NCBI GenBank assembly: GCA_038045705.1 | Contig: JBBSXO010000006.1 | Location: 44,506-108,505 of the forward strand | Direction of reading: 5' to 3' | Origin: Nanobdellota archaeon | Lineage (GTDB): Archaea; Nanobdellota; Nanobdellia; Pacearchaeales; GW2011-AR1 | DNA: 64,000 nt | Shown: in pieces, positions 25,020 through 63,175 of the stretch | Layout: every line of letters begins with the position of its first letter | How positions within the stretch are numbered: the stretch's first letter is position 1 | Made by a program: the position numbers and the translations under genes | The notes under the pieces: model-generated | Databases searched by the model: none | Seen by the model: the letters and a program-made list of their open reading frames with translations, nothing else | Told to the model about the DNA's origin: nothing

Positions 25020-25777
25020 TGGCTTATGAAATACCTCAACAACTAGAATACAAAGAGAAAATAATGTTTGGGTTAAATTTTAAGCAATTAGCTTATCTTT
25101 TTATTTTTGCACCAATTCTATTTGTTATTTTTTTTAAGACTGCCTGGCATAATGCAATAAAGATATTTTTTATGTCAATTTTTGGAGGTTTAGCTATAGG
25201 GTTTATCTTTCTTGATTTAGATAAACATCTTCAAAATTGGTTTTACTGGTATAAATCAAAGAAGTTAGAGTTAGATCATAAATTAGCCTTATTCATACCA
25301 ATAAAAGAAGTAAAAGATAGTTTGGTTATAACTAGGGATAATAGGAAACTAGCAATTATCAAGATTACTCCTATTAATTTCTCAATTAAACATGAAGAGT
25401 CTAAGAATGCAATATCAATAGCATTTCAGAAATTTCTCAATGGTTTAGATTTTCCTATACAGATTATAATGAATACTGAACACCTTGATCTACGAGATTA
25501 TTTTGCAGAAGTTGAAAGAAAGATAAAAGACTCCAAACAATTTAGATATTTGTTTGAAGGTTACAAGAGACATCTAGAGTCAATAACTAAAGAAAAAGAT
25601 GTGATGAATAGGGTTTTTTATCTAGTTCTTACAGAAAGAACTGATATTAATATACAATTACAGATTTGTCAGACAAAATTATCTAATATTGGTTTAAAGA
25701 GTTTGAGACTAAAAGATAATGAATTAAAAGAATTGCTTAGAAGATTTTTCTTAGCAAGGAGAAATCATGCTAAGTAA
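25007..25777 (+). CDS. membrane protein with two N-terminal TM helices (VirB3/VirB8-like candidate)
   Basis: Two N-terminal TMs, then a soluble domain. Immediately upstream of, and overlapping, the VirB4-like ATPase gene. Confidence 0.3.
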   Translation: MEEIMAYEIPQQLEYKEKIMFGLNFKQLAYLFIFAPILFVIFFKTAWHNAIKIFFMSIFGGLAIGFIFLDLDKHLQNWFYWYKSKKLELDHKLALFIPIKEVKDSLVITRDNRKLAIIKITPINFSIKHEESKNAISIAFQKFLNGLDFPIQIIMNTEHLDLRDYFAEVERKIKDSKQFRYLFEGYKRHLESITKEKDVMNRVFYLVLTERTDINIQLQICQTKLSNIGLKSLRLKDNELKELLRRFFLARRNHAK

Positions 25778-31826: not shown

Positions 31827-34800
31827 ATAATCCTCCAGTTAAGCAAAGATTTCCGTTAAAGTCAATGTAACTCATATTGTATCCAGTTAAATTCTGTATG
31901 AGAAAAGAATCTCTTATAGGATTACATGAACTTATCATATCTGAACAGGTTCCAGATTCTAAGCACATATTACCAGTAGTGTCAATGTAAGCTGTAGAGC
32001 TATCTGTAGAATTTCCGATAACCAAAGAACCGTTAGGTGCAACGCAGTTGCTTGATATCGAACAAGTACCTTTAAGAGCAATATTGCCCCAGTCTCCTAA
32101 CCATGCAACATTTGATGCAGTTGAGTCTTGTATTAGAAATTTATTAGTGTCATTTCTCATTGGATTAAGAGTTACAGAATTAGAGGGAGAGTAATAAGCC
32201 GAGTAAGTATTGCTTCCATTAACATCTATCGATCTGCATGAGAAAATAACTGGGTATTCTGGAGCGATGGAATTAAAGTTCCAATTTAACGTTTGACTAG
32301 CCGTATGATTTCCTATACTATGGAATGCTAAATCATAAAATGCATTTATATTATAAGTGATATTATCATTTTCAGCATCGGTAGACCCAGAACAGTTGAG
32401 ATTCATGCTATAATAAAAAGTATTTGTTGAACATGCAGCACCATTACAAAGAAGAGAAGTTGGAGTAGTTGGAGGAGTATTGTAAGTGCAGTTAAGACTA
32501 CAACTTCCAGTACCAGCAACAACACCATTACACTGACTGTCTGCTGTACATCCAGTAGCAAAACTTGAAGATCTACAAACATTGTCTCCCCTATCTTCTC
32601 CACTAGCACTAGAAGAACATTTATCTGCAAAATAAGTTAGAGCACTAGCACAGGTTGTTATATTACTGCCTGAAGAAAGTCCATCACATAATGGTTGTGC
32701 ACAAGAACATCCAGTTTCTCCACATTCAAAGACTGAAGTTACATCCTGATAACCACATACACTACTACATTCTTCTTCATAATAAGAAATTCCAGAACAC
32801 AAATTCAAATCATCTCCTGTTTGTCGTTCATCACAACTAGATATTCCTAAAGTAGTAGAAAATTCGCAATAATTTGTTTCCTGACTGTCAAAATAGCCAT
32901 TATACGGACTAAAACACCAACCATCATCACTTAAACCAACACCATCATTATCACAAAAGTTTGATTGACATTGAGCACTAGAAGTGCAAGATTGCCCATT
33001 GGATAAATCAGAAACACAACTCCAAGTATTCCAGCTACCAGATTTATTACAAAATTGATTTGAAGCACAGTCACTATTACTATAGCAATTCAAAACATAA
33101 ATGTAAGGGTTATTTGTATATGAAGGGTTAAATGGATCAAAACCAGTGGTACACCAATAAGATGAAGTGTCATCGTAACCTATAATCTCTTCAAAGTGTG
33201 CTGTTGCAGGAGCATTAGTTACATTTATCACGCCCTGATTGCCCGATAGTGGATTTCCACCACAGCCACCAGAACCACAACTACTTGGATTAATATCATA
33301 ATAAACATCTTGAGCATCAACTGCTTTCCAACCAACTTTATAATTTCCTATAGTATAGGGGTCACTATTATCAACTACTTGTCCCCAAGAAATGTTATTT
33401 ACATTACTATACACATTTATAGCAACAGTTACATCACAATTTCCAAAACTATTAGTTGTACAATATTCATAACCTGGCTCCGTACATGTAGAATTTCCAC
33501 CACCAGCGCCACTACAAGAAGCATCATTAACACATCTTGTCTGCGCATTACAACCTGAAGGAGTACAAGTTCTTGTTTCTAATCTTTGACCCTCTCCACA
33601 TCCCCCTCCACCACAAGAACCAGAAACCCAGTTACTACATTGACAACTTGAACTAAGAACACTAACCCATATAGGATTTGTATAAGTTCTATAAGTTCCC
33701 CCAGATCCAATGCATTCAGCCCTAAAATATGTATCTCCAGGATTTGCAAGAGCTAGATTGGGCAAAGTAATGGGGCTTGAACTGCCACTGATATTAACGG
33801 GTCCATAATGAGTCAATTCAAGATTACTCCCAATTGTTGATTTGTAAACTCTAAGAGTACATGAATGATCTAAATCATAAGTTATCCTCATATTCAAAAT
33901 ATCATTGGTATTTGCACTAACTTCTCCACCCATTTGAGTCCATGTTGATTGAGAATTCTTTTTTGCTTCTATTATAACATATCCATTATTAGACACAACA
34001 TTCGTTCCAGCAGCTAAAGCAGATTGAATATTAGAATGGGTGATGGTGGAAGCTGGAACATAGTTATAATTTATGTCAGAAACATGTCCATGTTCATCGG
34101 TGCCCCCATATGCATAAACGCGCTCATCTTGTTGCAAGAGATTATACCATGCATTAAAATTATCAGCATCATCATCAAGGCTATCAGAAGTGAAATTTCC
34201 ATTCCAAATTTCAACCCCATCATATCCCGAAACAGAATATATTGATTCAAAATCAAGAAAAGTAGTGGTGCTGGATGAAGGATGAGGGTGATTAAGAATG
34301 GAGATACCACCTTGGCTAGCAATAGAATTAACTCCGCTTTGAGCAGATGGGCCCGAAGGGCAATGAACTGCAGAAGGTGTTTGAGATATCAAACTGCTTA
34401 GCCCATATCCTCCAATATGAGCCTCTCCTGGACCAGTTGAACCAGTATAACAACTAAAAAGATTTTCATTATCCCCAGAAATATCCTGAGTGCTTAATTC
34501 TTCTCCCATAAGACAAGTAAATGTACTATTTCGGGCATTCACACAATCATTTCTTACTGTACCAAACTCACCAGCATCAATACAATAACTGTGATCTGAA
34601 AATCCAAGATAATCTAGTCCTAAATTTGCAGCTTCATCTGCTAATTCTTGAACTTCATAACCTATCAAATGTCCTTCAAGACCTATGGGGAGGCAGTTAT
34701 CTGAATTTGTAAATGGATTGCTATCATATCCACCCACTGTGCTAAATCCAGTATGTTGATGTAGACTCCCTTTATAAAAATTAATTGCCAAACCATCCTC

Positions 34801-34857
34801 AGAAAACAAGATCACTGTAAGAATAATAAAAATAAAGACGACATAATTTATCTTCAT
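31807..34857 (-). CDS. secreted PHP-domain phosphoesterase fused to a ~700-aa Cys-rich extracellular region
   Basis: Signal peptide. PHP motifs SLHQHTGFS, LGFSDHS, GEELS and ILNHPHP in the first ~200 aa. Over 60 Cys in CxxC/CxC arrays thereafter. Length 1016 aa. Confidence 0.45.
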   Translation of the reverse strand: MKINYVVFIFIILTVILFSEDGLAINFYKGSLHQHTGFSTVGGYDSNPFTNSDNCLPIGLEGHLIGYEVQELADEAANLGLDYLGFSDHSYCIDAGEFGTVRNDCVNARNSTFTCLMGEELSTQDISGDNENLFSCYTGSTGPGEAHIGGYGLSSLISQTPSAVHCPSGPSAQSGVNSIASQGGISILNHPHPSSSTTTFLDFESIYSVSGYDGVEIWNGNFTSDSLDDDADNFNAWYNLLQQDERVYAYGGTDEHGHVSDINYNYVPASTITHSNIQSALAAGTNVVSNNGYVIIEAKKNSQSTWTQMGGEVSANTNDILNMRITYDLDHSCTLRVYKSTIGSNLELTHYGPVNISGSSSPITLPNLALANPGDTYFRAECIGSGGTYRTYTNPIWVSVLSSSCQCSNWVSGSCGGGGCGEGQRLETRTCTPSGCNAQTRCVNDASCSGAGGGNSTCTEPGYEYCTTNSFGNCDVTVAINVYSNVNNISWGQVVDNSDPYTIGNYKVGWKAVDAQDVYYDINPSSCGSGGCGGNPLSGNQGVINVTNAPATAHFEEIIGYDDTSSYWCTTGFDPFNPSYTNNPYIYVLNCYSNSDCASNQFCNKSGSWNTWSCVSDLSNGQSCTSSAQCQSNFCDNDGVGLSDDGWCFSPYNGYFDSQETNYCEFSTTLGISSCDERQTGDDLNLCSGISYYEEECSSVCGYQDVTSVFECGETGCSCAQPLCDGLSSGSNITTCASALTYFADKCSSSASGEDRGDNVCRSSSFATGCTADSQCNGVVAGTGSCSLNCTYNTPPTTPTSLLCNGAACSTNTFYYSMNLNCSGSTDAENDNITYNINAFYDLAFHSIGNHTASQTLNWNFNSIAPEYPVIFSCRSIDVNGSNTYSAYYSPSNSVTLNPMRNDTNKFLIQDSTASNVAWLGDWGNIALKGTCSISSNCVAPNGSLVIGNSTDSSTAYIDTTGNMCLESGTCSDMISSCNPIRDSFLIQNLTGYNMSYIDFNGNLCLTGGLYENVIF

Positions 34858-45675: not shown

Positions 45676-46644
45676 ATGAAAAAAGAACCAATCTCAAAGA
45701 GACAGCATTATGTTAATCAAGCTTACTTAAAAAATTTTAGAATAGAAAGTACGGAAGATAGTTTATTTATGTATGATAAAGAGAAAATGTCTATTGCTAG
45801 GGTAAAAACTGCAAATGTAGCCAGCGAGAATTTCTTTTATGATAGGACAGAAGAGCGCATTATAGAGAAGACTTTAGCAGAATTTGAAGGTAAATGTAAT
45901 GTTATCTTAAAAAAGGTCATCGAAAAGGAAGATTTAGACCAATTAATTAGTGAAGAAAAGGAGCTTTTAGCGACGTTTTTAGCAGTTCAATTTTTAAGAT
46001 CAAAAGAATTAAGAATTGATTATAAACAGATTGCAGAGGCTGTTTTAGAAAGGGTTGCTGAGAAAATAGTTCCAGATTTTAAGAAAGGAGATATTAAAGT
46101 CGTAGAAGATTCTTTATCTGGACTTCATGTACATACGATTTTTAAAGAATCTGGACATTTTGCAAAATTATTTCTTGATAAATCATGGAAATTATGTATC
46201 AATAATTCCTCTATTCCTTTTTGGACTTCCGATAATCCTTGTGCAATACATAACGATCTTGAGCCAGAACCATTCAAAAGCAATCTAGGAATTGAATGTA
46301 AGGGCTTTCAGTTGCATTTTCCATTATCTTCAAGGTTACTCTTAATAATTATTGACAAAAACATTAAGGTAATTGATTTAAGTAATGCAAAAGAAATAAA
46401 ATATCCAAAAAAGAGAAGTTTTTACAGGAATATAGATAAGAAACTAGACGTTCCTTTATTTACTTTAATGCCTCCAAAGGAATTTGTTGGAGGGGACAGA
46501 GTTACTTTTGAGAATAATTTGCAGGTAATATCTGCGACAAGATTTATCTTTTCTTCAAATGAAGATTTTTCTCTTGCTGACAAATATTTAAAAGAACAAC
46601 CGATACATAGAAATGCAAATAGAGGAAGATTTAAAGTAATGTAA
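45676..46644 (+). CDS. DUF4238 family protein
   Basis: N-terminal KRQHYVNQAYLKNF matches the DUF4238 signature (H-x-h-P/N-Q-x-Y-L-K-x-F). Confidence 0.45.
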   Translation: MKKEPISKRQHYVNQAYLKNFRIESTEDSLFMYDKEKMSIARVKTANVASENFFYDRTEERIIEKTLAEFEGKCNVILKKVIEKEDLDQLISEEKELLATFLAVQFLRSKELRIDYKQIAEAVLERVAEKIVPDFKKGDIKVVEDSLSGLHVHTIFKESGHFAKLFLDKSWKLCINNSSIPFWTSDNPCAIHNDLEPEPFKSNLGIECKGFQLHFPLSSRLLLIIIDKNIKVIDLSNAKEIKYPKKRSFYRNIDKKLDVPLFTLMPPKEFVGGDRVTFENNLQVISATRFIFSSNEDFSLADKYLKEQPIHRNANRGRFKVM

Positions 46645-48113: not shown

Positions 48114-48542
48114 ATGACTACAAAAAACACAATCCGTAATTCAGATAGATCAAAGTTAAATAAACATAAGAAGACCATTTTAGAGCATTATTTATCTAGC
48201 TTTAATTCAGAACATTTTTGCAATAGGTGTAAGAAAGTCTTGCCCTTGCCAGAACTTGAGATACATCATCTTAGCTATGAAACTGAAAGTTATCGCTATG
48301 GAGAAATAGTTTGCAGACCTTGTCATGAGGCTACCGAAAAAGGTATTATTTCTTCTTTTCATGAGCAAAAAAACACAGGTATTCAGAATGTCTTTGTATT
48401 TCAGAAATATTTATCTGGAATGGCAATTATCTCTAGATTAGAAGACGGAAGAATCTTGCAGAGGATGAGATTAAGACTTAGAGCTGGGGAAGAAGTAAAA
48501 CCATTAGTTTTAATGGGGATTTTTACAGATAGAAAGATATAA
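48114..48542 (+). CDS. HNH endonuclease domain protein
   Basis: CNRCKKVLP...EIHHLSYETESYRYGEIVCRPCHEA (Cys4 plus HH...N/H pattern of the HNH fold). Confidence 0.5.
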   Translation: MTTKNTIRNSDRSKLNKHKKTILEHYLSSFNSEHFCNRCKKVLPLPELEIHHLSYETESYRYGEIVCRPCHEATEKGIISSFHEQKNTGIQNVFVFQKYLSGMAIISRLEDGRILQRMRLRLRAGEEVKPLVLMGIFTDRKI

Positions 48543-50734: not shown

Positions 50735-50747
50735 CCGGGACGGGCGT
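50735..50747 (+). repeat. attR core: 13-bp direct repeat CCGGGACGGGCGT
   Basis: Identical to tRNA-Asp positions 21067-21079. An imperfect inverted copy ACGCCCTGCCCGGGC lies at 50823-50837. Confidence 0.55.
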
Positions 50748-50909: not shown

Positions 50910-52082
50910 TTGATACGGAAGAGCATGAAAATAGACCCATACAACCACGAAGAAAAATACAAAGCTTGGAGAGAAAGAGTTACCAATGGTATTCCCGATA
51001 TTTCCAAACAAAATTCTGATTTAATACTGACTTATCTGAAAGATATGGAACTAGGAATAAATATTGGAAATGGTAGCACTAAAGGTGCTAGAGGCTATAA
51101 CAGATTAAATTCCTTAAGGGATAAACTATGTTTCTTCTCAAAACAATTTAAGTCGCATTTTGATATAGATAATATAACAACCATTTCTGAAGACCAGTTA
51201 GTTGGTTTCTTTGCAAAAATGACTTCAGGTGATATCAAACGTATAGATGGAAAAACTTACACATCAGTAGATACCTATTCCAAAATCTTTAGAGCATTTT
51301 GGCATTGGTGGCAAAAAGTAAATCGTAAAAAAGGAGTCGATATTAAGGATATAACTACAGACTTAGATACGAGACAAAAAAAGCCAAAATGGGTATACAT
51401 GACTGAAGAAGAAGTCAAGAAATTAACAGAAAACGCTCGTTTCGATTATAAGGTGCTAATCTATTTCTTGTTTGATTCTGGAATCAGATCTCCTACGGAG
51501 TTAGTTAATGTAAAAGTTTCAGATTTATTCAATAACTATAAAGAAATGAACATTAGAGAGGAAGCAAGTAAAACATTTGGTAGAAGAATAAAGCTTATGA
51601 TCTGTTCAGATCTTATAAAGGAATACATAAAATCTAAGAAACTTACTCCAGAGGATCAGTTATTTGATATACATCATGCTACTGTTAATCGTTACCTTAA
51701 ACGCTTAGCAACAAGAGTCTTTGGAGAAAGAGAAAGTCCTGCTGGTGAGAAATATTCAAACCTTACCATGTATGACTTTAGGCATATCTCATGCTGTTAT
51801 TGGCTTCCACGTTACAAATCTGAAAGTGCATTAAAGTATCGCTTTGGCTGGAAAGAATCAGATAAGATCCACTATTATTCTGAATTGTTAGGTATGAGCG
51901 ACACAATAGCGGAAGATGACATGCTTATAGATGTTACAAAAACCGAGATTGAGAAAGAACTGGAGAGATCTAAGAAGGAAAAAGAAATACTTCAAGAAAA
52001 GATGCAGACAATGGAATTACAGATGGTGAAGATAATGGAATTAGTAAAACAATTAACAGTGAATGCTATTCCTCAGACATGA
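50910..52082 (+). CDS. int: tyrosine recombinase / integrase (paralog of 21162-22334)
   Basis: Same boxes as the first integrase (DSGIRSPTELVNV, YDFRHISCCYWL, KIHYYSELLG). About 65% identical to it. Confidence 0.7.
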   Translation: MIRKSMKIDPYNHEEKYKAWRERVTNGIPDISKQNSDLILTYLKDMELGINIGNGSTKGARGYNRLNSLRDKLCFFSKQFKSHFDIDNITTISEDQLVGFFAKMTSGDIKRIDGKTYTSVDTYSKIFRAFWHWWQKVNRKKGVDIKDITTDLDTRQKKPKWVYMTEEEVKKLTENARFDYKVLIYFLFDSGIRSPTELVNVKVSDLFNNYKEMNIREEASKTFGRRIKLMICSDLIKEYIKSKKLTPEDQLFDIHHATVNRYLKRLATRVFGERESPAGEKYSNLTMYDFRHISCCYWLPRYKSESALKYRFGWKESDKIHYYSELLGMSDTIAEDDMLIDVTKTEIEKELERSKKEKEILQEKMQTMELQMVKIMELVKQLTVNAIPQT

Positions 52083-52316: not shown

Positions 52317-53813
52317 TTAAGAAACCTTATCTTTTAGTTCAAGTAATCCTTTCTTAATTTCATCAACTAAACCCAATGTTTCTTGAAGTATCTCTTTACT
52401 AGGTCTATAAACAATATTTTCTTCTTCATATTTCTTATATTTTGAGATACTTAAGTCAAATTCATTCTCTTTTATCTCGCTAATTGGAACAAAGAAATGT
52501 TTCTTCTTTCGATCTTCATTTGACTGTTCTTTTCTTTTTTTAAAACTCTCAATAATATTTGGAATATCATTTTTATCTGGCTGTTTGGTTCTTTTATCAT
52601 CTAAACTATATCCATCATATTCCATATCATAAAACCATACTCTCTGAGTTGGTTCTCCCTTTGTGAAGAATAAGACTGCAGTAGAAACCCCAGCATATGG
52701 CTTGAATACTCCTGAAGGCATTGAAATAACTGCATCTAACCTGCATTTCTCAAGAAGAAGATTTCTTACATCTTTATGGGACTTGGAATTACCAAATAAA
52801 ACTCCGTCTGGAACTATTACGGCACATCTTCCTCCATTAGCTAGAGAATTATACATTAATTCTAAGAATAGGAGCTCGGTTTTCTTTGTTTTTATTCTGA
52901 AATTATCACTCATTTCAGATTCATCAATAGACCCCTTAAATGGAGGATTTGCTAAAATTAAGTCGTAAGTGTTATCTTCATTGTATCTTTTTGATAATGT
53001 ATTAATTTGTTGTAGATTTGGTCTTGATATACCGTGCATCATTAAGTTCATTAAAGCTATTCTGACCATAGTTTGGTCTATATCATACCCATAAATTGAT
53101 TCTTCATCTAAAAGCTGTTTTTGTTTAGCGTTTAATTTATCCCCTTTGAAATTGTATTCATTTCCTTCTTCATCTTTTTTGATTAAATCTTTAGAGGTAT
53201 TTTGTCTAAGAATATGTTCATAAGCATTAACAAGAAATCCAGCAGTTCCACATGCAGGATCTAAGATTCTATCTCCATATTCAGGGTTTCCCAATTCAAT
53301 CATCATTTTGATTATATGTCTTGGAGTCCTAAACTGACCATTTTTTCCAGCTGTTTGAAGCTCTGATAAAAGAAATTCGTATATATCCCCTTGAGTATCT
53401 GTATTTTGTTCTTTGATATGCATATCATTAATTATCCTTACTGCCTCAATCAATAAAGAGGCAGTGGGTATCTCAAAGTTAGCATTTCGCATATACTTGG
53501 AGTAGTAAGAATCTCCTTTGTCAAGATTTCTTAAAAATGGAAATACTTTATCTCTCACATGGTCACTAATCTTATCTGCTGAATAGTTTGACCACTGAGA
53601 CCATTTGCAGTCTTCATGTCCTTTAAACATGGATTGATGTGGTTCGCCTGTAAGTGTTCCTTCTTGTTGTTTTCGTATGTCTTCATCTTCTAAACGCCTC
53701 ATAAAAATAAGATAGGATATTTGTTCGATTGCTTGGAGAGGATTGCTAATGCCTCCGCTCCAAAACTTATCCCATAATTTCTGGACTTTTGATTTTAGTT
53801 CATTGTGTAACAT
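52317..53813 (-). CDS. hsdM: Type I restriction-modification system methyltransferase subunit
   Basis: HsdM N-domain, motif I DPACGTAGFL and motif IV LANPPF. Confidence 0.8.
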   Translation of the reverse strand: MLHNELKSKVQKLWDKFWSGGISNPLQAIEQISYLIFMRRLEDEDIRKQQEGTLTGEPHQSMFKGHEDCKWSQWSNYSADKISDHVRDKVFPFLRNLDKGDSYYSKYMRNANFEIPTASLLIEAVRIINDMHIKEQNTDTQGDIYEFLLSELQTAGKNGQFRTPRHIIKMMIELGNPEYGDRILDPACGTAGFLVNAYEHILRQNTSKDLIKKDEEGNEYNFKGDKLNAKQKQLLDEESIYGYDIDQTMVRIALMNLMMHGISRPNLQQINTLSKRYNEDNTYDLILANPPFKGSIDESEMSDNFRIKTKKTELLFLELMYNSLANGGRCAVIVPDGVLFGNSKSHKDVRNLLLEKCRLDAVISMPSGVFKPYAGVSTAVLFFTKGEPTQRVWFYDMEYDGYSLDDKRTKQPDKNDIPNIIESFKKRKEQSNEDRKKKHFFVPISEIKENEFDLSISKYKKYEEENIVYRPSKEILQETLGLVDEIKKGLLELKDKVS

Positions 53814-54669
53814 TTGATTTATCCACCTCTTTTAAGAAAGTCTTTTCTATATTTAACTTGATTTCGTTGAAAGTTTTTATCAATACGGGAATTGCTTTTA
53901 CAATTGGAAGATTTTCATTATAATCAAAAAAGTTTAAATTAGAATCTTTGGTGTAAGGATAGCGCGGTGTATTGAAGTGTAAAAATGTTATAAGACTCAA
54001 ATAATGCAGTTTAAAACTAATCATCATGTCAATTACATATTCTTCTAATTTATAACTCTCTATGGAAGCCCTTACGTCTGAATCTCTAATTCTAAATGTC
54101 GTTATTCTAAATAACATATGCTTAATAAAACTAATAAAACTTTTTTCATGCACCCTTTCATTTAAGTTTTTCATAGTCTCTTCTGATTTAAGATTCTTCT
54201 CTGAATTTTTTAAGAATTCAAGAATAAAATTTATATGTGATTCTGATATATTTCTTAATTCATCTTCAGTTTTTTCTAGAGTTTCCAATCCCTTTTTTGA
54301 AACTTCCAAATCAATTTTAACATCATTAATAATATTGCTTACCTCTGTTATATCATTTATATCTTCTTCTTTAATTTCTTTCTTTAGTTTATCTAGAATA
54401 AATGAGTGTTTATAGGCTTCATGGGGGTCTATTCTCCCAATAAATATATAGTAACTCTTAGTTAGCTTCTCAAAAGCTTGTTGCAAGTGATATGCTGAAC
54501 CTGCATAATGCTTTAAATCATATAGTATTTTACATATCTCAATATCATTAGTAGCAATAGTAAGCCACTTTTTAGTAAACTCCATATTTTTTATTGAAGA
54601 CTGTACTCTTTCATCGCTCTTTCTTAGTATTTTTTCCATTAATAATGGGTCAACTTGATATTTTTTCAT
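53800..54669 (-). CDS. hypothetical protein embedded between hsdS and hsdM (helical; possible HEPN-like)
   Basis: 289 aa, all-helical composition. Overlaps both neighbours by 4-14 nt, so it is translationally coupled within the R-M operon. Confidence 0.3.
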   Translation of the reverse strand: MKKYQVDPLLMEKILRKSDERVQSSIKNMEFTKKWLTIATNDIEICKILYDLKHYAGSAYHLQQAFEKLTKSYYIFIGRIDPHEAYKHSFILDKLKKEIKEEDINDITEVSNIINDVKIDLEVSKKGLETLEKTEDELRNISESHINFILEFLKNSEKNLKSEETMKNLNERVHEKSFISFIKHMLFRITTFRIRDSDVRASIESYKLEEYVIDMMISFKLHYLSLITFLHFNTPRYPYTKDSNLNFFDYNENLPIVKAIPVLIKTFNEIKLNIEKTFLKEVDKSNVTQ

Positions 54670-55820
54670 TTTATCAGTTCTCCCCTAAATGCTTTTTGCA
54701 TGAGCGAATCAAATATTTGATTAAGCATTTTGTTTTTTTCTTTCTGTTTTTCTTTTAATCTTTCAACATGTTCAATAATAGAAGAAAATTTTCGTTGAAT
54801 ATTAATTGGAGGCAAACTAAAACTTAAATTTTCTATTATACTCATATTTAGTCCTGGCATAATTGCCCCTCTCATTCGAATATTCAACTGATGTAGCACT
54901 CCAGGGTCAGAATATATTAAATAAGAAATATAGAATGGATCAGCAATATCATTATTTAAAGTAATTGCGACTAAATGTTTTGTGTTGATTGCTAAAGGAA
55001 TGTTTTCTGGAACAACCACCGATCTTCCTACAGTACCCATAATTGTTACCAGCACATCTTTTGGGTGAACTGTATATCTTTTTAGTTTTTCATACTTCTC
55101 TTTAGTAATGTATCTTCTTTCGTCCCAAGAAAAATAATTATTAACAACATTATCAATCCCTAAAACTGCAATACCTTTACTAACAAACTCGGAGTGCAAT
55201 AAGTCGCTACCGAATGGTCCTGTTCTAATACTTCCTTTAGGCTTAGCTAAGACTTCTTTTAGCTTAACTTTTGACCATCTAGAATAATTCAAACTACCTT
55301 TACTAAGAAGCTCGTAAAAAACGCTTTTGAGGTATTCATCAAACAATTCAAGAACCCCTTTCCCATTAATGCTGGCCTTCTCAGATTTTTTTAATAAATT
55401 AATAATTTCTTGCTGAACCCGTATATTAATTGGATAAATAAATTTTATTTTTTCAATATAACTTTTAGATATGTGCTTTAGTCCTGCGCCTTTGAAACCC
55501 CTCTCTAAAATATGCATTTTTGATTTAAGATAATAATAAATATACTCTGTTAAGACTTTGTCTTTTATACTAACGACAAAACAATCGTTAGAAGCTGAGA
55601 ACCTTTCATTGCAGTAATGAACTCCAGCCTGGCCTCCGCTTGAAAAGATTAAATGTTCCCCATCAAAATCAAATTCATTGATTTTCTTACTTTGAACATT
55701 ACTTGAAGTAAAAAACTTATATTTTCCATCTTCTAAACCTTCTCCGGCTTTCCTTCCTGTTCTACTTTGAAAAGAAAGTATTACTCCTAACTCAATTTCT
55801 TGCCAATTAGTATTTTTCAT
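54666..55820 (-). CDS. hsdS: Type I restriction-modification system specificity subunit
   Basis: Two target-recognition-domain halves and a conserved C-terminal LPPINIQRKFSSIIEHVERLKEKQKE...LMQKAFRGEL. Confidence 0.7.
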   Translation of the reverse strand: MKNTNWQEIELGVILSFQSRTGRKAGEGLEDGKYKFFTSSNVQSKKINEFDFDGEHLIFSSGGQAGVHYCNERFSASNDCFVVSIKDKVLTEYIYYYLKSKMHILERGFKGAGLKHISKSYIEKIKFIYPINIRVQQEIINLLKKSEKASINGKGVLELFDEYLKSVFYELLSKGSLNYSRWSKVKLKEVLAKPKGSIRTGPFGSDLLHSEFVSKGIAVLGIDNVVNNYFSWDERRYITKEKYEKLKRYTVHPKDVLVTIMGTVGRSVVVPENIPLAINTKHLVAITLNNDIADPFYISYLIYSDPGVLHQLNIRMRGAIMPGLNMSIIENLSFSLPPINIQRKFSSIIEHVERLKEKQKEKNKMLNQIFDSLMQKAFRGELIK

Positions 55821-56404
55821 TTAAAGCTTTTTATTACCTCATTATTAATATAAACTAAGTTATTAATTAATATGAAATAGCGTTGAAGAACAACTATAAA
55901 TTCATTTTTTAGCGATAGATAAAGAGATGTTTTTTCTATACTGTCATGAATTTCCTTCTGTCCTTCCGTTCTATGAGAAAACTTTCCATAAAGAAATATT
56001 TCCAATATTTCTCTATTTGTATAATTCTTAATATTTATGCTGTAATTAGTCGAGACTTTTAGAAATTTATCTATATCAGACATTTCTTTTCCAAACATTT
56101 TTCTTTCTTTATCACATACAATAGTTGATTGATAGAAGAGATTTAACTTTTCAACCTTGAGAGAATCGTTCTTTTGTATAAACTTTCTAAGATCATTGCA
56201 AAACGCTTTAATAGACTCGTCATCTGGCCCTCTTAGCTCAGTTCTAAGTAATTTATCTAATGCATTCCATTTTATTGTTACTCCCGATCCATTTAATTTA
56301 TCTTTAAAGCTTAAATCAAATATTTCTTGAGCTTCTTTATTGAACTCTATAAATTTGGCGATTATTTCATCTTTTGTTTTAACTGGCTTTGTCATATTAC
56401 TCAC
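55817..56404 (-). CDS. hypothetical protein embedded in Type I R-M operon
   Basis: 195 aa, no motif. 4-nt overlaps with its neighbours. Confidence 0.3.
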   Translation of the reverse strand: MSNMTKPVKTKDEIIAKFIEFNKEAQEIFDLSFKDKLNGSGVTIKWNALDKLLRTELRGPDDESIKAFCNDLRKFIQKNDSLKVEKLNLFYQSTIVCDKERKMFGKEMSDIDKFLKVSTNYSINIKNYTNREILEIFLYGKFSHRTEGQKEIHDSIEKTSLYLSLKNEFIVVLQRYFILINNLVYINNEVIKSFK

Positions 56405-57383
56405 CCTTCGCTTTTAGTTTAACATATAAAGGAAATATTTTCTTTTCCTTTTTTATGAATAGAATAACTTCTTGAAGTATCTGTTTGTTCTGCTTTTTTG
56501 CTATTTTTTGATACTCTTCTATGAAGTATTTTGGTAGGGAAAAGAAACCCCAGTTTTGAGATCTTAAATTTAGACTTCTCTTCAGAGTTACTTGATTCTC
56601 ATTCTTTACATAAATAACTTCTTTTTGTTTCATTGTTGGATTTATTTTTACTTTTCCTTTAGTAAGAAAGTGAATTGGCCACAGATTGTCAAGTATTCCA
56701 AAATAAGAATTTATTGGTTTTATAAGCTTCTTTAGTTTCTCCATTGCAGTTTTATAATTATCTTTAGTAACGTTTGATGGTAGTTTATCAAAGTCGTCTA
56801 AGGTCTTTATATTCCAAACCTGTTGCTTCGTCAATTCTTTATAATTTATTTCCTTGGTTAAAGAGTTCATTCTTTTTCTTAAGTCCTCAATTATCTGAAA
56901 ATTTTCGTAAGAAACAAAATATATTCCGTGTGACCACATTAATGCTTGAGCGTTTTTTGCAAAGCCTGATGTCGAATAGAAAACTGGGATATAACTATAT
57001 CTTTTCTCATCAAATATCTGAGAGTATTTGGTTCTTGATCTGCTTTTTGTGTTAATCCTTGAATATTGGGATATATCGATGAAAGCTCCTAAAAACTCCC
57101 TTACTTGCTTTATCTGGATTGGTGTTGAATAATTCTTGGCCTCTCCAACCAAAAGGAAAGGGTATGAAAATGGAAGAGTTATCGGAAACTCTCCTATGAA
57201 GTCAGGATCATAAGTTCCACCCCTCCCATGAAGTCTCTTTTTTGTTTTTGATTGTGTCATTTGACCAACTTGGGCATTTAAATCAAAGCCTGCCTGCTCT
57301 ATCCAGTCTCTGAGAATAAACTCAAACAATTTACCTCTTACCGCATTCTGTTTGTAAGTAATTTGAGGATTACGCCTTACCAT
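56397..57383 (-). CDS. PD-(D/E)xK restriction-endonuclease-like protein embedded in R-M operon
   Basis: DPDFIGE...FLLVGEAKNY (D ... E-x-K) typical of the Mrr-cat/PD-(D/E)xK fold. Length 328 aa. Confidence 0.35.
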   Translation of the reverse strand: MVRRNPQITYKQNAVRGKLFEFILRDWIEQAGFDLNAQVGQMTQSKTKKRLHGRGGTYDPDFIGEFPITLPFSYPFLLVGEAKNYSTPIQIKQVREFLGAFIDISQYSRINTKSRSRTKYSQIFDEKRYSYIPVFYSTSGFAKNAQALMWSHGIYFVSYENFQIIEDLRKRMNSLTKEINYKELTKQQVWNIKTLDDFDKLPSNVTKDNYKTAMEKLKKLIKPINSYFGILDNLWPIHFLTKGKVKINPTMKQKEVIYVKNENQVTLKRSLNLRSQNWGFFSLPKYFIEEYQKIAKKQNKQILQEVILFIKKEKKIFPLYVKLKAKGE

Positions 57384-58026
57384 CTTTAACCTCCAAAACT
57401 AGAATTGAATCGGTGTCTAGGTACTTGATCTTGTTAACACTTCTTATAGTAATATCAACTTTGCCAATTTCTTTTGCAGGCTTAATTAGTATATCTAGCG
57501 TTCCATTGCCAAAGAGTTCTCTTTCCCAGATAATCGCATTCTTGCCGATTATTATTATTTTATTGTCTAAAACTTTCTCAGGAACAATAATTATTCTATT
57601 TCCGTAATCCAAGCGAGGTACTCTTTCCTCATAATCAATTCTGCGCATTAATTTTGTAAACACTTCAACATAAAACTTGTTAGAAAGAAGGATATAAGAA
57701 TTATTAGATTCAATATATTTTGGAAATTCTGTAATGTCCTCTTTAACTTCAATTTTTTTAATTTGTTTATTATCAATTATTGTCTGGATAAGAAAATCTC
57801 TCTCACCCATAGCAACCATCATACCTGCACTAGGCAATGACGGATGAAAACTAGGATCAATAAAAATATCATCTTCTATTACCGGTCTTATTCCTATTTG
57901 AATGAAAGAACCGTCTGTCTTTTCAGTTGTCCTCACTGTTGCAATATCTTCGATGACCAGGCTTCGACTATAATCTTCAGTTGTCAACCTGATAAATTCT
58001 GCTATTTTTTCCTGATTATAAATCAT
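57370..58026 (-). CDS. hypothetical protein embedded in R-M operon
   Basis: 218 aa, no motif. Overlaps its neighbours. Confidence 0.3.
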   Translation of the reverse strand: MIYNQEKIAEFIRLTTEDYSRSLVIEDIATVRTTEKTDGSFIQIGIRPVIEDDIFIDPSFHPSLPSAGMMVAMGERDFLIQTIIDNKQIKKIEVKEDITEFPKYIESNNSYILLSNKFYVEVFTKLMRRIDYEERVPRLDYGNRIIIVPEKVLDNKIIIIGKNAIIWERELFGNGTLDILIKPAKEIGKVDITIRSVNKIKYLDTDSILVLEVKDGKA

Positions 58027-58271
58027 TCTTTCACCTCAAAATTCCATTGCTTTTGCTTTATGTTGACTCTTTCGTATTCGCTTTCTATTCCTTTCTTTTG
58101 TTTTGTAAGAGGGTTACCTACTATTTCCTGCTGAACCAGCTCCCTTAGTTTTTGGTGAATGCTTTTGTTCTCGGCTTCACATATCTTCATAATATTAGCA
58201 AATTCAGAGCGGTAGAGCTTAGTTGAAACTACTCTTCTACCTTCACCTCTTGTAATGGAGTCATTTGACAT
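58023..58271 (-). CDS. small DNA-binding protein (RHH-like) downstream of hsdR
   Basis: 82 aa. VVSTKLYRSEFANIMKICEAENKSIHQKLRELV fits a beta-strand plus helix-helix pattern. Confidence 0.3.
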   Translation of the reverse strand: MSNDSITRGEGRRVVSTKLYRSEFANIMKICEAENKSIHQKLRELVQQEIVGNPLTKQKKGIESEYERVNIKQKQWNFEVKE

Positions 58272-58355
58272 GCTAATAATCTGATACCTAACTATTTAAA
58301 TTTTACGATAAATCGGTAGACCGATTTTCTAGATATAATATGAGTTATACCTCAA

Positions 58356-61100
58356 TTATCGCCATTTGAGTTTATTACATTTTTCAACGATTTTCTCCAG
58401 TTGCTCTCGGCTAAACTTGTCCAAAGGTCTCTCTTCAGTAAGAGGATGTTTTGCAAGGTCTTTGAGGGTTATGTGTTTTGTACGGACAAAAACCTCTCTT
58501 AGAAGCCTTAGGAACTTTATTTGGTCTGAGTTATAATGTTGGTTTCTGTCTAAAATATATTTATCAAACTCATTCTTTATCATCTGCTCTGGGTCAGGCA
58601 AGTCTCGTATCCCAATTACTTGACGAATAAATAAAATAAAGTCAATCTTTATGATATTCTGGATATTTTCTATTGTCCATGCTGGGTTAAGGCTAGAAAG
58701 CTTCTTTTCTATTTCTAGAATTTCCTGCGCCGTTACTCCTTCCCCATTCCTTATTTTTTTAATGAGATGATCGTGCTCAATAAACTCTGTCAAATCTTTA
58801 TTCTCTTTTATTTCATGTTTCAACTGTTCAACTTTAAGCACTACATCAGGGGCGTCTACTCGCAACATTTTCTTTCGTTCTGAATCATAGTAAATCATAA
58901 GGGGAGATATCTCGCGTATAAGAAAATCAACATCCTCAAAGCTTAAGTCTTCCCAAAAAGTCTCTTGCATGACCCTCTTCATATCATTGCTCTTTGCTTG
59001 AATAACTTCAAGTCCTTTTTCCCATACATTTTGGACTCGTTCTTCAACAAATTCACGAATATTCCAGATTTTGTCTTTGTTATTATCTTGAATTGCTCTA
59101 AATAGTTTTACGCATTGCGAAACAAAGGCATAAACTTTTGAGTTTTCAGATTGAGAATACATCAGAAGCGGAGCAATATCATTTCTTAACTCTTTGATAT
59201 GATCTTTAAGATCGAATCTTTCCGAGACTACCTTTCTTATTATTGGTAACTTTTCTATAACTGCTGGAGATTCCATATCTATTAACCTTACAGTATCGCG
59301 TATTTCTTTTTCTATAATCTTTACTTGCTTCTGCTCTAGTTTCTTTTCAAGAAGATCAACTTGTTCTAGGAAAATTCTTGTTTTTGAGTCTATGACATCT
59401 GCTTTATTTTTAGTTCTGTCAAGTTGGTGAAATACTACATTGGAATGGTCTCCAAATTTAAAGTCTAAAATCAAAAAACTTTCTTTAATGGCTTGCCCAT
59501 CTTTTGAGGGTAACCAATCTTTATGTTTACACGCTTCTAAGTTTCTCGTTCCTCTTCCCAACATCTGCCAAAATCTTATGGGTGAAAAGACTGGTTTAAC
59601 AAATACTAGGTTGCAAATTTCTGGAATGTCTACTCCTGTATCTAGAACTCCAACAGATAAAACTATTCTTGGTTCAGAATCTTTTTCAAATCGCTTCACT
59701 TCATCCATATATCTCGTCCTATCTGAAGTTATCACTCTGACCTCTTTTGCAAGAGTAGGATAGAGCCTATCAAAAATAGTCTTTAATGACTCCGCATGTT
59801 TAACACTTGCACAGAAAAATATTGTTTTGCATGGTTGCCCGTCATCAGACTTATAACATCTATCAATAAACTCATTAATAATTAGTTCGTTTGTTTTAGC
59901 ATCAGTAAAATATTTTTCAAATCTCCCTCCTGGTAGCTCTATTTTTTCTGGGTCTTCTTCTTGTTCTTTTAAGATTTGTTTTAATTCTTTGGTTAATTTT
60001 GAACCTTCTATACCTAAGGATAAAACTCTAGTCTCTATTATATCTGCTACATATGGGGCAAGAACTCCTTCATTAACTGCGGTATCATAATCATATTTTA
60101 CCGTAGGTTTCTTATCTTCACAGTCAAATAGTTTGAACGTGTCTCGACTATCTTCTTTTGAAGGGGTAGCAGTAAGACCTAACCTGATACAATCAAAATA
60201 ACTAAAGAGAATATTGTTCGAATCATAAAAAGACCTATGTGCTTCATCAAATACAATTAAGTCAAAGAAACCTACGCCAAATTTCTCGTACATTGGTCTT
60301 TTCTTTTTATTATCGCTATTGGTCAAAGTTTGCACTGTGGAAACGTAGAGTCTCGCGCTGTCTGAGAATCCTTCAAAGTTTAATTCACACACTGGCTCAT
60401 TAAAAAAACTTTTGAACCCTTTCTCTTTGGCTTGATTTGCAAGTGAAATTCTATCAACTACAAATAAAACATTTTGAACATGGTCTGATTTTATCAAAGC
60501 ATCAATTACTGCCATAGCCACTCTTGTTTTACCAGTTCCTGTTGCCATATTAACTAGAGCAGAACGATGATTTTTTGAAAAGTGCTCTAAAATCTGCTTA
60601 ACTATCTCAACATTTCTTGGGCGGTCAACTATTTTAGTATTAATTTTAACTTTTACTGGGTCTTTTTCATGTTCATATAAATGTTGTCTTCTTTGAAGAT
60701 CTTTTTGAGTAAACGGTAAAAGAACTTTTCTTTTACATTCCTTTTGGTCTACGAAGTACCACGAATCCCCATTAGTAAGAAATATTGCTATCTTTTTACC
60801 AGTCTGTTTTTCAATGTCTTTTTGATATGATCTCGCTTGGATCTCACCTTTTTCAATACTAACAGACGTCTTCTTAGCTTCAATTACTGCTAGAGGAGAA
60901 TAATCTTCATCTAATAGTAAGTAGTCTATGAATTTATCAACTCCCCTCTCAATATTACTTTTGTCATTTGTATATTCTTTAGTCTTAAAATTAGACTTCA
61001 CACAGTTAACTTCTTCTTTTATGTATTCTTTTACCCAACCAGTTCTTTTCAAGAGTGGGTCTATCTTTTCTTTTCTAGTTTCTGCTTCTGATAATTGCAT
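58356..61100 (-). CDS. hsdR: Type I restriction enzyme endonuclease/helicase subunit
   Basis: N-terminal TRKEKIDPLLKRTGW and PD-(D/E)xK (DYLLLDEDYSPLAVIEAKK). Helicase motif I MATGTGKT and motif II VFDEAHRS. Length 914 aa. Confidence 0.75.
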   Translation of the reverse strand: MQLSEAETRKEKIDPLLKRTGWVKEYIKEEVNCVKSNFKTKEYTNDKSNIERGVDKFIDYLLLDEDYSPLAVIEAKKTSVSIEKGEIQARSYQKDIEKQTGKKIAIFLTNGDSWYFVDQKECKRKVLLPFTQKDLQRRQHLYEHEKDPVKVKINTKIVDRPRNVEIVKQILEHFSKNHRSALVNMATGTGKTRVAMAVIDALIKSDHVQNVLFVVDRISLANQAKEKGFKSFFNEPVCELNFEGFSDSARLYVSTVQTLTNSDNKKKRPMYEKFGVGFFDLIVFDEAHRSFYDSNNILFSYFDCIRLGLTATPSKEDSRDTFKLFDCEDKKPTVKYDYDTAVNEGVLAPYVADIIETRVLSLGIEGSKLTKELKQILKEQEEDPEKIELPGGRFEKYFTDAKTNELIINEFIDRCYKSDDGQPCKTIFFCASVKHAESLKTIFDRLYPTLAKEVRVITSDRTRYMDEVKRFEKDSEPRIVLSVGVLDTGVDIPEICNLVFVKPVFSPIRFWQMLGRGTRNLEACKHKDWLPSKDGQAIKESFLILDFKFGDHSNVVFHQLDRTKNKADVIDSKTRIFLEQVDLLEKKLEQKQVKIIEKEIRDTVRLIDMESPAVIEKLPIIRKVVSERFDLKDHIKELRNDIAPLLMYSQSENSKVYAFVSQCVKLFRAIQDNNKDKIWNIREFVEERVQNVWEKGLEVIQAKSNDMKRVMQETFWEDLSFEDVDFLIREISPLMIYYDSERKKMLRVDAPDVVLKVEQLKHEIKENKDLTEFIEHDHLIKKIRNGEGVTAQEILEIEKKLSSLNPAWTIENIQNIIKIDFILFIRQVIGIRDLPDPEQMIKNEFDKYILDRNQHYNSDQIKFLRLLREVFVRTKHITLKDLAKHPLTEERPLDKFSREQLEKIVEKCNKLKWR

Positions 61101-61514: not shown

Positions 61515-61922
61515 CTATTTCTTAAGAATTTTGGCTAGTTTTTCTTTGAATTCTTGCACGTCCTTAAAATCAAAAGTTTCATCAGCCATGCCTTTAAGCA
61601 TAAACCCTCTTCCGTCTGGACCTGATGCTACAATGACTTTCTTACCTAATCCTTTCATCATCCCACTTTCTATTAACAAACCTTCTCCCTTTTCCTGAGT
61701 TTCTATTATTGAGATAATCGCATCACACTTTTTCATTTGTTCAAATGCCTTTTTCATTATTTCTTTAGGTTCCATTCCCCCTGGCTTCCACTGTTGCATA
61801 TCTCTTACAAAAATAAATGTTTTATGTCCTAAATCTTCAATAACTTTAGAAACCTCTTCTAAGCGTTTCTTTAAGATTGTGAAATCTACTCCGCTCAACT
61901 TATAGGCTATGTATATTTTCAT
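61515..61922 (-). CDS. nucleoside 2-deoxyribosyltransferase-like (flavodoxin-like fold) protein
   Basis: 135 aa. Hydrophobic MKIYIAYKLSG N-terminus, DAIISI...EKGEGLLIESGMMKGLGKKVIV. The pattern resembles the PF05014/PF15891 nucleoside N-glycosidase/transferase family. Confidence 0.4.
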   Translation of the reverse strand: MKIYIAYKLSGVDFTILKKRLEEVSKVIEDLGHKTFIFVRDMQQWKPGGMEPKEIMKKAFEQMKKCDAIISIIETQEKGEGLLIESGMMKGLGKKVIVASGPDGRGFMLKGMADETFDFKDVQEFKEKLAKILKK

Positions 61923-63175
61923 TTTATTGCTCCTCTTCTTTGAAGATTGAACTGTTCATATGCTTTTCGGACGTAATCATCCAGTTCTTCCATAGGCATT
62001 CCATTCAGAGAATGGATATTCATAACATGATATTTAACATGTTCTCCACCTGTCTTAAATTGATGATATGTATCTAAGGTTTCTGGAGTAAATCCTTTTG
62101 TTAACATATCTGAATATAATCTAGTGCCAGGAAATGCTCTAACTACCATGAATCTTGCATCAGAAGCTTCAAGATCTAAGGCAAATCTTATTGTATCTTC
62201 TATTTCATCTTTTGTTTCAGTAGGATATCCAATAGTAAAGAATCCCTTGCTTTCAATTCCTAATTCTCTACATTTTCTAAAAACTGCTTTAGTATGCTCT
62301 GTGTCTTGGCTTTTTCCTATATACTTTAGTATACGAGGAGTTGCAGACTCTACTCCAAATGCTAGCTTGTAGCACCCTGCTGCTTTCATTTCTTCAAGTA
62401 ACTTTTCATCTAAGTTATCTGTTCTGCATAAAGCTCTCCAACCTACTCTAACTTCTCTTCTTGCAAGACCATCTGCAAGCTCTCTTACTCTATCTTTAGA
62501 ATAATTAAACAAATCATCAATAAAGTGTATTCTTCTTACTCCGCTTTGTTGTAGGGCTTCAATTTCATCAATAACGTTTTCCACAGATCTTGCCCTCATT
62601 TTTCTTCCGTTAATTGTTGGAACAGAACAATAAGCACAACTAAACTTGCATCCTCTAGCAGTACTCATAGAAGCTTCTTTTCCATACTTTGTGGGATAGG
62701 GATCATTTGAGAATAAACTTCTGTCTACAAATGGAAGACTATCAAGATCATGTGCAACTCCTCCGTGAACTATCCCCCTTGGAGCGTTTCTAAGTATACT
62801 AGGTAAAACATCTTCGGCTTCTCCAGTAACTATGGTATAATCTCCTCTAATTCTTTCAGGTTGTAATGTAGCTTGAGGTCCTCCAACTAATTTAACTGGA
62901 GCTTCAATTTGATCTATTATTCCAAGAGATAATTGATGATTTGTTGAGAAGACATTGATACCTACTCTTTTTGGATTCATTGCAGAAACTCTTTCGACTA
63001 TTTCTGCTGGGCTAAGTTTTTCAGCTTCTGCGTCAACTATTGTTGAGTCATAACCCAATCTTCTAGCAATTGTAGCTAAATAACCTAAACCTATTGGAGC
63101 AGTTGTGAAATAATAAGGTTTATTCTCTCTTTCATATTCTTGTAATGGACTGTTAATTAATACTAAATCTGTCAT
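61919..63175 (-). CDS. B12-binding-domain radical SAM enzyme (class B-like)
   Basis: N-terminal B12-binding-like domain (LVLINSP...APIGLGYLATIARRLGYDSTIVDAE), then ARGCKFSCAYCSVP (CxxxCxxC). Confidence 0.7.
   Translation of the reverse strand: MTDLVLINSPLQEYERENKPYYFTTAPIGLGYLATIARRLGYDSTIVDAEAEKLSPAEIVERVSAMNPKRVGINVFSTNHQLSLGIIDQIEAPVKLVGGPQATLQPERIRGDYTIVTGEAEDVLPSILRNAPRGIVHGGVAHDLDSLPFVDRSLFSNDPYPTKYGKEASMSTARGCKFSCAYCSVPTINGRKMRARSVENVIDEIEALQQSGVRRIHFIDDLFNYSKDRVRELADGLARREVRVGWRALCRTDNLDEKLLEEMKAAGCYKLAFGVESATPRILKYIGKSQDTEHTKAVFRKCRELGIESKGFFTIGYPTETKDEIEDTIRFALDLEASDARFMVVRAFPGTRLYSDMLTKGFTPETLDTYHQFKTGGEHVKYHVMNIHSLNGMPMEELDDYVRKAYEQFNLQRRGAIK

Follow-up and report, generated by a model that had tools for sequence, protein, structure and literature searches.

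What do five additional genes contribute to a DPANN archaeon's type I restriction-modification (R-M) operon, and do they belong together? The operon in question lies in a stretch of 64,000 nucleotides (positions 44,506 to 108,505 of contig JBBSXO010000006.1, hereafter the window) from a metagenome-assembled genome of the Nanoarchaeota (DPANN). Its inserted open reading frames (ORFs), which encode proteins of 82, 218, 328, 195 and 289 amino acids (aa), separate hsdR from hsdS and hsdS from hsdM. Our analysis suggests, at a probability of roughly 0.55, that the operon is carried on an integrated tRNA-Asp element and offers two cassette slots, that these hold regulator and effector inserts, and that the operon includes a paired module of predicted HK97 (capsid/encapsulin) fold with a possible role in capsid sensing.

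Eight ORFs follow one another on the minus strand between 52317 and 61100, as a preliminary description of the sequence had placed them, in the order hsdR, 82 aa, 218 aa, 328 aa, 195 aa, hsdS, 289 aa and hsdM (Table 1). Neighbours overlap by 4–14 nt, and the sole gap, of 84 nt, separates hsdR from the 82-aa gene. The Hsd identities first assigned were upheld by Pfam and PADLOC, and the operon is complete, with its five inserts intact. HsdR retains a nuclease N-terminus, a superfamily 2 (SF2) helicase motor and a C-terminal assembly domain, and matches PADLOC REase_I over residues 2–882 (2e-87). Given that its top NCBIfam model, restrict_EcoAI (EcoAI/FtnUII, family IB), scored 235.7 bits against a cut-off of 550 bits, we regard it as EcoAI/EcoEI-like and not as an equivalog. 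By its gene content, the operon is a functional-looking, EcoAI/EcoEI-like type I system. PADLOC called the three Hsd genes and no known system among the inserts. Four of the inserts, the 82-, 218-, 328- and 195-aa proteins, had no match in Pfam, PADLOC, NCBIfam or PHROGs, in keeping with the earlier view that none of the five belongs to a recognisable system; the 289-aa protein does match a known domain, reaching 32.8 bits with Pfam HEPN (cut-off 22). The preliminary description had named prrC as an example of the genes embedded at type I loci. Here, the inserts include no PrrC/RloC-like gene, Pfam detected no ABC-type ATPase domain in any of the five, and PADLOC gave no match.

Table 1. Features of the R-M operon and of the integrated elements, numbered from the first letter of the window.
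Feature	Position	Strand	Matches and other evidence
tRNA-Asp	21007-21078		
tRNA-Asp 3′ end, second copy (CCGGGACGGGCG), att-like junction of two tandem integrated elements	50735-50746	+	
Tyrosine integrase, convergent with hsdM, start of the element carrying the operon	50910-52082	+	NCBIfam XerA_Arch 1.2e-10; PHROG integrase 3e-15
hsdM, N6-adenine methyltransferase subunit, 498 aa	52317-53813	-	Pfam N6_Mtase 5.6e-67, HsdM_N 6.5e-15; PADLOC MTase_I 4e-174
289-aa HEPN-domain protein with helical insert of about 130 aa	53800-54669	-	Pfam HEPN PF05168 8.8e-8, residues 33-116
hsdS, specificity subunit, two target-recognition domains, 384 aa	54666-55820	-	Pfam Methylase_S 5e-28 in two stretches; PADLOC Specificity_I 2e-57
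195-aa protein, hsdS-proximal accessory	55817-56404	-	27 homologues
328-aa protein, N-terminal Mrr/MspJI-like PD-(D/E)xK nuclease domain	56397-57383	-	
218-aa protein, predicted HK97 (capsid/encapsulin) fold	57370-58026	-	
82-aa ribbon-helix-helix (RHH)-like protein	58023-58271	-	β-α-α sequence pattern; weak RHH_9/ParG matches in relatives; operator co-variation
TATA-box-like TTTAAATA, putative internal archaeal promoter	58293-58300	-	starts 29 nt before the 82-aa ATG
Perfect palindrome AAATCGGT-CT-ACCGATTT, putative operator of the RHH-like protein	58310-58327	.	hsdR/82-aa intergenic region
hsdR, type I restriction subunit, EcoAI/EcoEI-like, 914 aa	58356-61100	-	Pfam ResIII 1.6e-35, EcoEI_R_C 1.2e-12, HSDR_N, Helicase_C

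The 218-aa protein is predicted to adopt the HK97 capsid/encapsulin fold. Its AlphaFold2 (AF2) model, with a predicted local distance difference test (pLDDT) of 93 and a predicted template modelling score (pTM) of 0.88, shows the N-arm or helix, E-loop, spine helix and A- and P-domains of that fold, and a PDB-sequence profile search with the family returned no match. We collected 97 homologues, all from DPANN and located almost exclusively between hsdR and hsdS of type I operons, and recorded their context at 57 distinct loci. Where at least 1.5 kb of upstream sequence was available, hsdR lay within four genes upstream in 24 of 30 loci, and hsdM did so in 3 more; where at least 3 kb was available downstream, hsdS lay within six genes in 24 of 25. 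In more than 50 operons the gene is found at the same place, in the same orientation and with start and stop codons that overlap, and the ratio of nonsynonymous to synonymous substitution rates (dN/dS) between members, 0.08–0.19, indicates purifying selection. Pairwise similarity within the 218 family did not track that of hsdR (Spearman −0.06, versus 0.88 for hsdM and 0.63 for hsdS), and the family is thus best described as a cassette exchanged between operons; one locus (L007) has a very distant hsdR, yet a close 218-family member. We found no relatives of the family in IMG/VR, phage or plasmid collections, and no portal, terminase or protease families in the neighbourhoods examined.

The gene directly upstream of the 218 family defines several types of locus. 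At 11 of the 57 loci it encodes an RHH-like protein of 82–116 aa, at 12 a single-transmembrane (TM) coiled-coil protein of 65–99 aa, at 8 a multi-TM protein of 96–193 aa and at 7 another soluble protein; at 11 loci an RHH domain is fused to the N-terminus of the 218-family protein, giving products of 281–302 aa with no separate partner gene. At some loci with a membrane partner, the partner gene abuts hsdR and leaves no intergenic promoter. The pair of 82-aa and 218-aa genes recurs in type I operons at other loci, and three related operons (L010, L012 and L014) keep the RHH gene in the absence of the 218 family. Furthermore, RHH-type and multi-TM-type partners share homology over their last 45 residues (phmmer E-values down to 4.5e-12). 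The C-terminal module that they share, about 35 aa long, ends in K-x-W-N-F-E-I-K-E and is missing from the RHH-218 fusions; the W-N-F codons lie at varying distances from the 218-family start codon. In the window, the 82-aa protein ends in KQKQWNFEVKE, adjoining the 218-aa gene, and is the putative partner of the 218-aa protein. By analogy, we infer that a helical partner encoded upstream and bearing a C-terminal tail, or fused at the N-terminus, mirrors the scaffold proteins and delta domains of HK97 viruses and the cargo of encapsulins.

Other small proteins are encoded upstream of the capsid-fold gene. At L022/L023 (348-845) and L047, the directly upstream gene encodes a 165-aa protein with no Pfam match that carries an RNxxxH motif (LRNLVFHRR), a motif typical of HEPN RNases. 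A small Cys-rich HNH-like protein (CxxC...HHI(D/N)...N...CxxC) recurs upstream of the gene at L035 (9611-9964), L045, L062 and L026, and a similar CxxC...HH...CxxCH pattern is present in a 142-aa ORF of the window that lies outside the operon, at 48114-48542 in the first of the two integrated elements.

The 82-aa protein, first described as RHH-like, remains so on several grounds: a β-α-α sequence pattern, weak RHH_9 and ParG matches in relatives and co-variation with a candidate operator. A PDB profile search with its family returned no RHH match. In 14 of 20 related loci, the sequence TTTA[AT]A[AT]A begins 29–30 nt ahead of the start codon, and 9 of the 20 carry an upstream palindrome with arms of at least 7 nt, whereas 500 shuffles gave 1.7 such loci on average and never more than 7. 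Archaeal TATA boxes lie about 26 nt ahead of where transcription starts; the TATA-like box 29 nt before the ATG in the window fits this geometry, which points to a putative leaderless transcript. Moreover, three palindrome classes co-vary with three classes of RHH β-strand, the strand RRVVSTKLY accompanying AATCGGT-N2-ACCGATT, RKIVSTRLY accompanying (AAGG)TGTATACA(CCTT), and xVV(A/S)SKLP, the strand of fused forms, accompanying GGTAAACC-N-GGTTTACC. The 82-aa protein most likely regulates the downstream unit containing hsdS and hsdM, as a putative autoregulator that would bind the palindrome.

The 328-aa protein is a Mrr/MspJI-like PD-(D/E)xK nuclease with an intact catalytic set. Its N-terminal domain has a restriction-endonuclease-like αβββαβ core, with AF1548 and the MspJI-family nucleases as best matches, and is followed by a C-terminal domain at about residues 180–328. 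The GEAK motif from which a nuclease had originally been proposed corresponds to E81-A-K83, and across 34 aligned homologues E21, D61, E81-x-K83 and Q106 are invariant. Pfam, NCBIfam and PADLOC gave no match to Mrr_cat or any other PD-(D/E)xK family, and a PDB-sequence profile search returned nothing relevant. The family comprises 36 homologues from DPANN archaea and Patescibacteria, and its neighbours differ between loci: the arrangement is hsdM-337-223-hsdS-...-hsdR at L001, hsdR-hsdM-hsdS-359-184-... at the patescibacterial locus L003 and hsdM-344-hsdS-536-hsdR at L006, where numbers give protein lengths. These operons differ in architecture as well as in HsdR type, and phmmer searches around the members at L001–L006 found no relatives of the 82-, 218-, 195- or 289-aa proteins. 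The 328 family is a mobile nuclease cassette that strongly favours type I operons. One member lies outside R-M, at L005 (10001-10981), where it overlaps the end of a gene for a TraC-like ATPase of a type IV secretion system (T4SS), with T4SS pilin, TrbL-like and AbiEi genes nearby.

The 195-aa ORF starts at a GTG codon; the NCBI annotation begins three codons later and gives 192 aa. Its family, with 27 homologues that are all from DPANN, bears the motifs GPDDExIKAxCNDLRKFIQKND and FLYGKxSH, and in every case its gene immediately precedes hsdS and overlaps it, also in operons that have neither the 218 nor the 328 family. A fold search with the family yielded no PDB profile match, no Pfam match (23 members) and no hhalign hit to the HEPN or 218-family profiles. 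At the patescibacterial locus L003 (11087-11641), the gene next after the 328-family member encodes a distant relative of the 195-aa protein, scoring E 1.4e-12 with the family profile, and a DUF5677 gene comes after it. This is a hint that nuclease and 195-aa protein may on occasion move as a pair between domains of life.

By its sequence, the 289-aa protein between hsdS and hsdM is a classical HEPN domain split by an insert of about 130 aa. Its family spans 228 representative clusters, in which D42, Q64, E67, K68, H88, H231, Y237 and Y250 are invariant and R236 and P238 nearly so. The HEPN elements (D42, QQ-x2-EK and H88 on one side; H231-x4-R236-Y237-P238 on the other) flank the helical insert.

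Comparison with related operons showed that the inserts differ from locus to locus and are not universally conserved. Scanning genome contigs with hsdR returned three loci. At a Pacearchaeota locus (L014), hsdR is 84% identical to that of the window, yet the inserts are wholly different: only an RHH-like gene is retained, while eight other inserts lie at the hsdR-hsdS junction and three at the hsdS-hsdM junction. Such different contents beside so similar an hsdR mark both junctions as cassette hotspots. Across the 218-family loci, 0–4 genes separate the 218 family from hsdS and 0–5 separate hsdS from hsdM, and the slot genes include 63 singleton families. The slot before hsdS holds a 54-aa basic protein with a PIN protein in 16 of these loci and the 328 family in 9 (duplicate contigs counted); in the remaining loci it holds a PDDEXK_9-like family or other genes, or is empty. 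The slot before hsdM holds NYN, NOV_C and membrane proteins and many singletons, and HNH-like genes are also among the slot contents at other loci. The idea of embedded hotspot cargo accordingly stands as regards the variable junctions and fails as regards a single block: each insert is an independent gene of its own family with its own distribution, and a single five-gene system was rejected on that ground. The locus consists of a regulator with a module of predicted capsid fold, a mobile Mrr-like nuclease, an hsdS-linked accessory gene and a HEPN insert.

At other loci, the cargo most often found after the capsid-fold gene is a very basic protein of 50–69 aa followed by a PIN-domain protein from one of two PIN families, as at L007 (8662-9380), L038, L042 and 13 other loci. 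It looks like a toxin-antitoxin-type pair whose small partner is unusually rich in lysine and arginine. In two Methanobacteriaceae loci (L015 and L016), where hsdR is 51% identical to that of the window, one or two genes for uncharacterised proteins of 423–484 aa lie between hsdR and hsdS; since these methanogen operons also carry inserts, the slot is not confined to DPANN.

These components can be assembled into a possible mechanism. The hsdR gene would be transcribed alone, and a second, leaderless transcript would run from the 82-aa gene through the inserts, hsdS and hsdM. The RHH-like protein would bind the palindrome and autoregulate this unit in the manner of a controller protein or an RHH antitoxin. 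The Mrr/MspJI-like nuclease would add a second DNA cleavage, probably one that is modification-dependent or otherwise licensed, and the HEPN protein an RNA-targeting abortive response. The protein of predicted HK97 fold would pair with the partner encoded upstream, which may be an RHH protein, a membrane protein or an RHH domain fused to its N-terminus, and the C-terminal module of the partner would dock as a scaffold or an encapsulin cargo peptide does. In the reading that we prefer, which is speculative, the capsid-like subunit senses or poisons the assembly of tailed-virus capsids and signals to its partner; the output would be derepression of the operon with an RHH partner and membrane damage with a TM partner. 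Stated in full, a virus-derived capsid module would have been domesticated as an exchangeable component of DPANN type I R-M, acting on tailed-virus capsid assembly with an output set by the partner, so that RHH partners derepress nuclease, HEPN or PIN cargo and membrane partners kill the cell. We hold this fuller version tentatively and, taken whole, consider it unlikely.

Several observations weigh against capsid sensing or against parts of the scheme around it. The HK97 fold of the 218-aa protein is a prediction and its assembly into capsomers or shells putative, and a Pfam comparison of 45 members at E ≤ 1, which covered the capsid and encapsulin families PF04454, PF05065 and DUF1884, gave no sequence match. 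The RHH profile matches are weak (RHH_9 at E 0.009–0.04 in fused members, ParG at 0.02 in a long variant), and the internal promoter upstream of the 82-aa gene is putative. The Shine-Dalgarno region of the 218-aa gene doubles as coding sequence for part of the conserved partner tail (E-I/V-K-E or K-G-E-K), and so this part may be constrained at the nucleotide level. Given that the partner is not an RHH protein in many loci, the roles of regulator and sensor need not be linked. As for the effectors, the 328-aa nuclease has no recognisable modification-reading domain. The 289 family has H231-x4-R236 and not Rx4-6H in canonical order, and its gene has only hsdS and hsdM as neighbours, with no MNT gene beside it, which makes the RNase activity of the 289-aa protein uncertain.

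Among the alternatives, the 82- and 218-aa proteins might be a control unit for R-M and nothing else, the RHH protein setting hsdS and hsdM expression in a new host and the HK97 domain serving as an oligomerisation scaffold without any interaction with viruses. The palindrome and TATA box upstream of the RHH gene, the co-variation of the palindrome with the RHH β-strand, the fusion of RHH to the 218 family and the position of the pair at the head of the unit containing hsdS and hsdM all speak for such a unit. It accounts poorly, however, for the about 20 of 57 loci in which the upstream partner is a membrane protein, some of them with no intergenic promoter after hsdR, and for the operons that keep the RHH gene alone; moreover, an intact HK97 fold under purifying selection would be an odd choice for a simple oligomerisation domain. 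We judge this explanation plausible, if unlikely. Less can be said for a closed, encapsulin-like nanocompartment, in which the partner would be cargo and the shell would sequester something toxic, for example HsdR or the embedded nucleases. Here the family matches no encapsulin family in Pfam, the Hsd and nuclease proteins all lack the tail module, and an operator-binding RHH protein or a membrane-anchored TM partner is hard to fit into a closed lumen; the catalogue of encapsulins names neither R-M contexts nor DPANN (PMC8346489). This makes a nanocompartment a distinctly doubtful proposal.

The capsid-like gene, perhaps together with the RHH and nuclease genes, could instead be a remnant of a virus or satellite that inserted into the operon, or a passenger on one, with no role in the host. 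An HK97 fold is a hallmark of tailed viruses, the operon lies within an integrase-bearing element, and the 218 family does not co-diverge with hsdR. These points have to be set against the low dN/dS, the fixed position, orientation and codon overlaps in more than 50 operons, the lack of relatives in the viral and plasmid collections, and neighbourhoods in which neither virion genes of the kinds listed above nor flanking repeats were found; a remnant is, in our estimate, very improbable. Finally, co-oriented and overlapping ORFs in an hsd operon could in principle be frameshifted pieces of HsdS or HsdR, or spurious. We rejected this, a check that the preliminary description had itself proposed: all three hsd genes span their full length and encode every domain expected of them, none of the inserts resembles an Hsd protein, and full-length homologues number from 27 to more than 200 per insert, which leaves the idea with next to no chance.

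The operon lies on an integrated element. The integrase at 50910-52082 shares 62% identity with another at 21162-22334 beside tRNA-Asp, both being 390 aa long. The last 12 nt of tRNA-Asp occur in two exact copies in the window (21067-21078 and 50735-50746), where none would be expected by chance. Together, the repeated tRNA end and the second integrase place the operon in the second of two tandem elements. A third copy of CCGGGACGGGCG is absent from the 64-kb window, and the far end of the second element is therefore either past position 64000 or degenerated. No terminal or flanking repeats were found around the inserts of the operon.

The first element, at about 21–50.7 kb, has the look of a conjugative or secretion-type element integrated in a DPANN genome. 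It encodes a TraG/VirB4-like P-loop ATPase, a DUF4238 protein and several very large proteins (1016, 562 and 522 aa) that match nothing in Pfam, with genes of note at 25767-28076, 31807-34857 and 45676-46644. Directly upstream of hsdR, two overlapping genes lie at 61515-63175 on the minus strand, one for a nucleoside 2-deoxyribosyltransferase-like protein of 135 aa and the other for a B12-binding radical SAM protein of 418 aa; the two may form a nucleoside or DNA modification pair beside the R-M operon.

The embedding of genes in type I R-M operons is already known. PrrC is embedded in the EcoprrI type I operon. TgvAB is embedded in the type I R-M locus of VPI-2 in V. cholerae (PMC11411939), and a guilt-by-embedding survey lists further candidates without mention of capsids, HK97 or encapsulins (10.1101/2024.01.29.577857). 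Like these cases, the operon described here carries co-oriented extra genes between the hsd genes that vary among related operons, including a second nuclease that could complement R-M. It differs in that its inserts match no PrrC/RloC, GmrSD or PADLOC model, in its DPANN host, in its two slots and in its recurrent cassette of predicted capsid fold, to which neither paper refers. The N-terminal domain of the 328-aa protein shares with Mrr and MspJI type IV enzymes and with AF1548 the PD-(D/E)xK fold and the E...D...ExK set, and the protein is likewise stand-alone, with no cognate methyltransferase; in MspJI, however, the nuclease domain is C-terminal and follows an SRA-like reader, whereas that of the 328-aa protein is N-terminal. 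The 289-aa protein scores above the Pfam threshold for HEPN proteins (PF05168) and keeps their QQ-x2-EK...H and RYP elements, but departs from HEPN-MNT pairs in its split domain, its lack of an MNT neighbour and the order of its Rx4-6H residues.

As far as the accounts of C proteins, RHH antitoxins and defence-island repressors such as RptR drawn on here extend, those regulators resemble the 82-aa protein in being small DNA-binders that head a unit they probably control, with a palindrome beside the promoter and co-variation of operator and protein. C proteins are helix-turn-helix (HTH) proteins of bacterial type II systems, in contrast to the RHH-like protein with a putative archaeal TATA promoter and a probable leaderless transcript considered here, and the present regulator often occurs as a fusion or a pair with a protein of predicted capsid fold. 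That protein, for its part, is shorter at 218 aa than the classical shells among encapsulins (Families 1–4), yet its model has the full HK97 fold, as against the A-domain-only Family 4; its partners are DNA-binding or membrane proteins and not enzymes, and an R-M context is absent from the catalogue (PMC8346489). Compared with HK97 major capsid proteins that have a scaffold or delta domain, and with satellite capsid homologues such as SaPIbov5 Ccm, the family is much shorter, absent from viral collections and tied to hsd genes, with no portal, terminase, protease or tail genes nearby. A review of exapted mobile-element genes gives encapsulins as the cellular proteins of HK97 fold (PMC8987985), and our literature searches retrieved nothing relevant on HK97 or encapsulins in combination with type I R-M, hsdR or DPANN. 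While embedding in type I R-M is already known, a module of predicted capsid fold in more than 50 such operons appears to be new.

The embedded genes of type I R-M operons have already yielded new defence systems, and the present DPANN example adds two slots and several candidate nuclease families. To our knowledge, the control mechanisms of archaeal R-M systems are almost unknown; the predicted operator and promoter constitute a directly testable regulatory circuit for one of them. The part that would surprise specialists is the family of predicted capsid fold. Viruses, satellites and gene transfer agents aside, the HK97 fold is, so far as we are aware, essentially confined to encapsulins in cells. 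If the capsid-sensing reading is true, the 218 family would be a new cellular class of HK97 proteins beside the encapsulins, a third cellular use of the fold tied to an immune operon and equipped with swappable DNA-binding or membrane partners, and the first case of an immune system using a capsid mimic; it would bear on the exaptation of capsids and on how immune systems sense the late, structural stages of infection.

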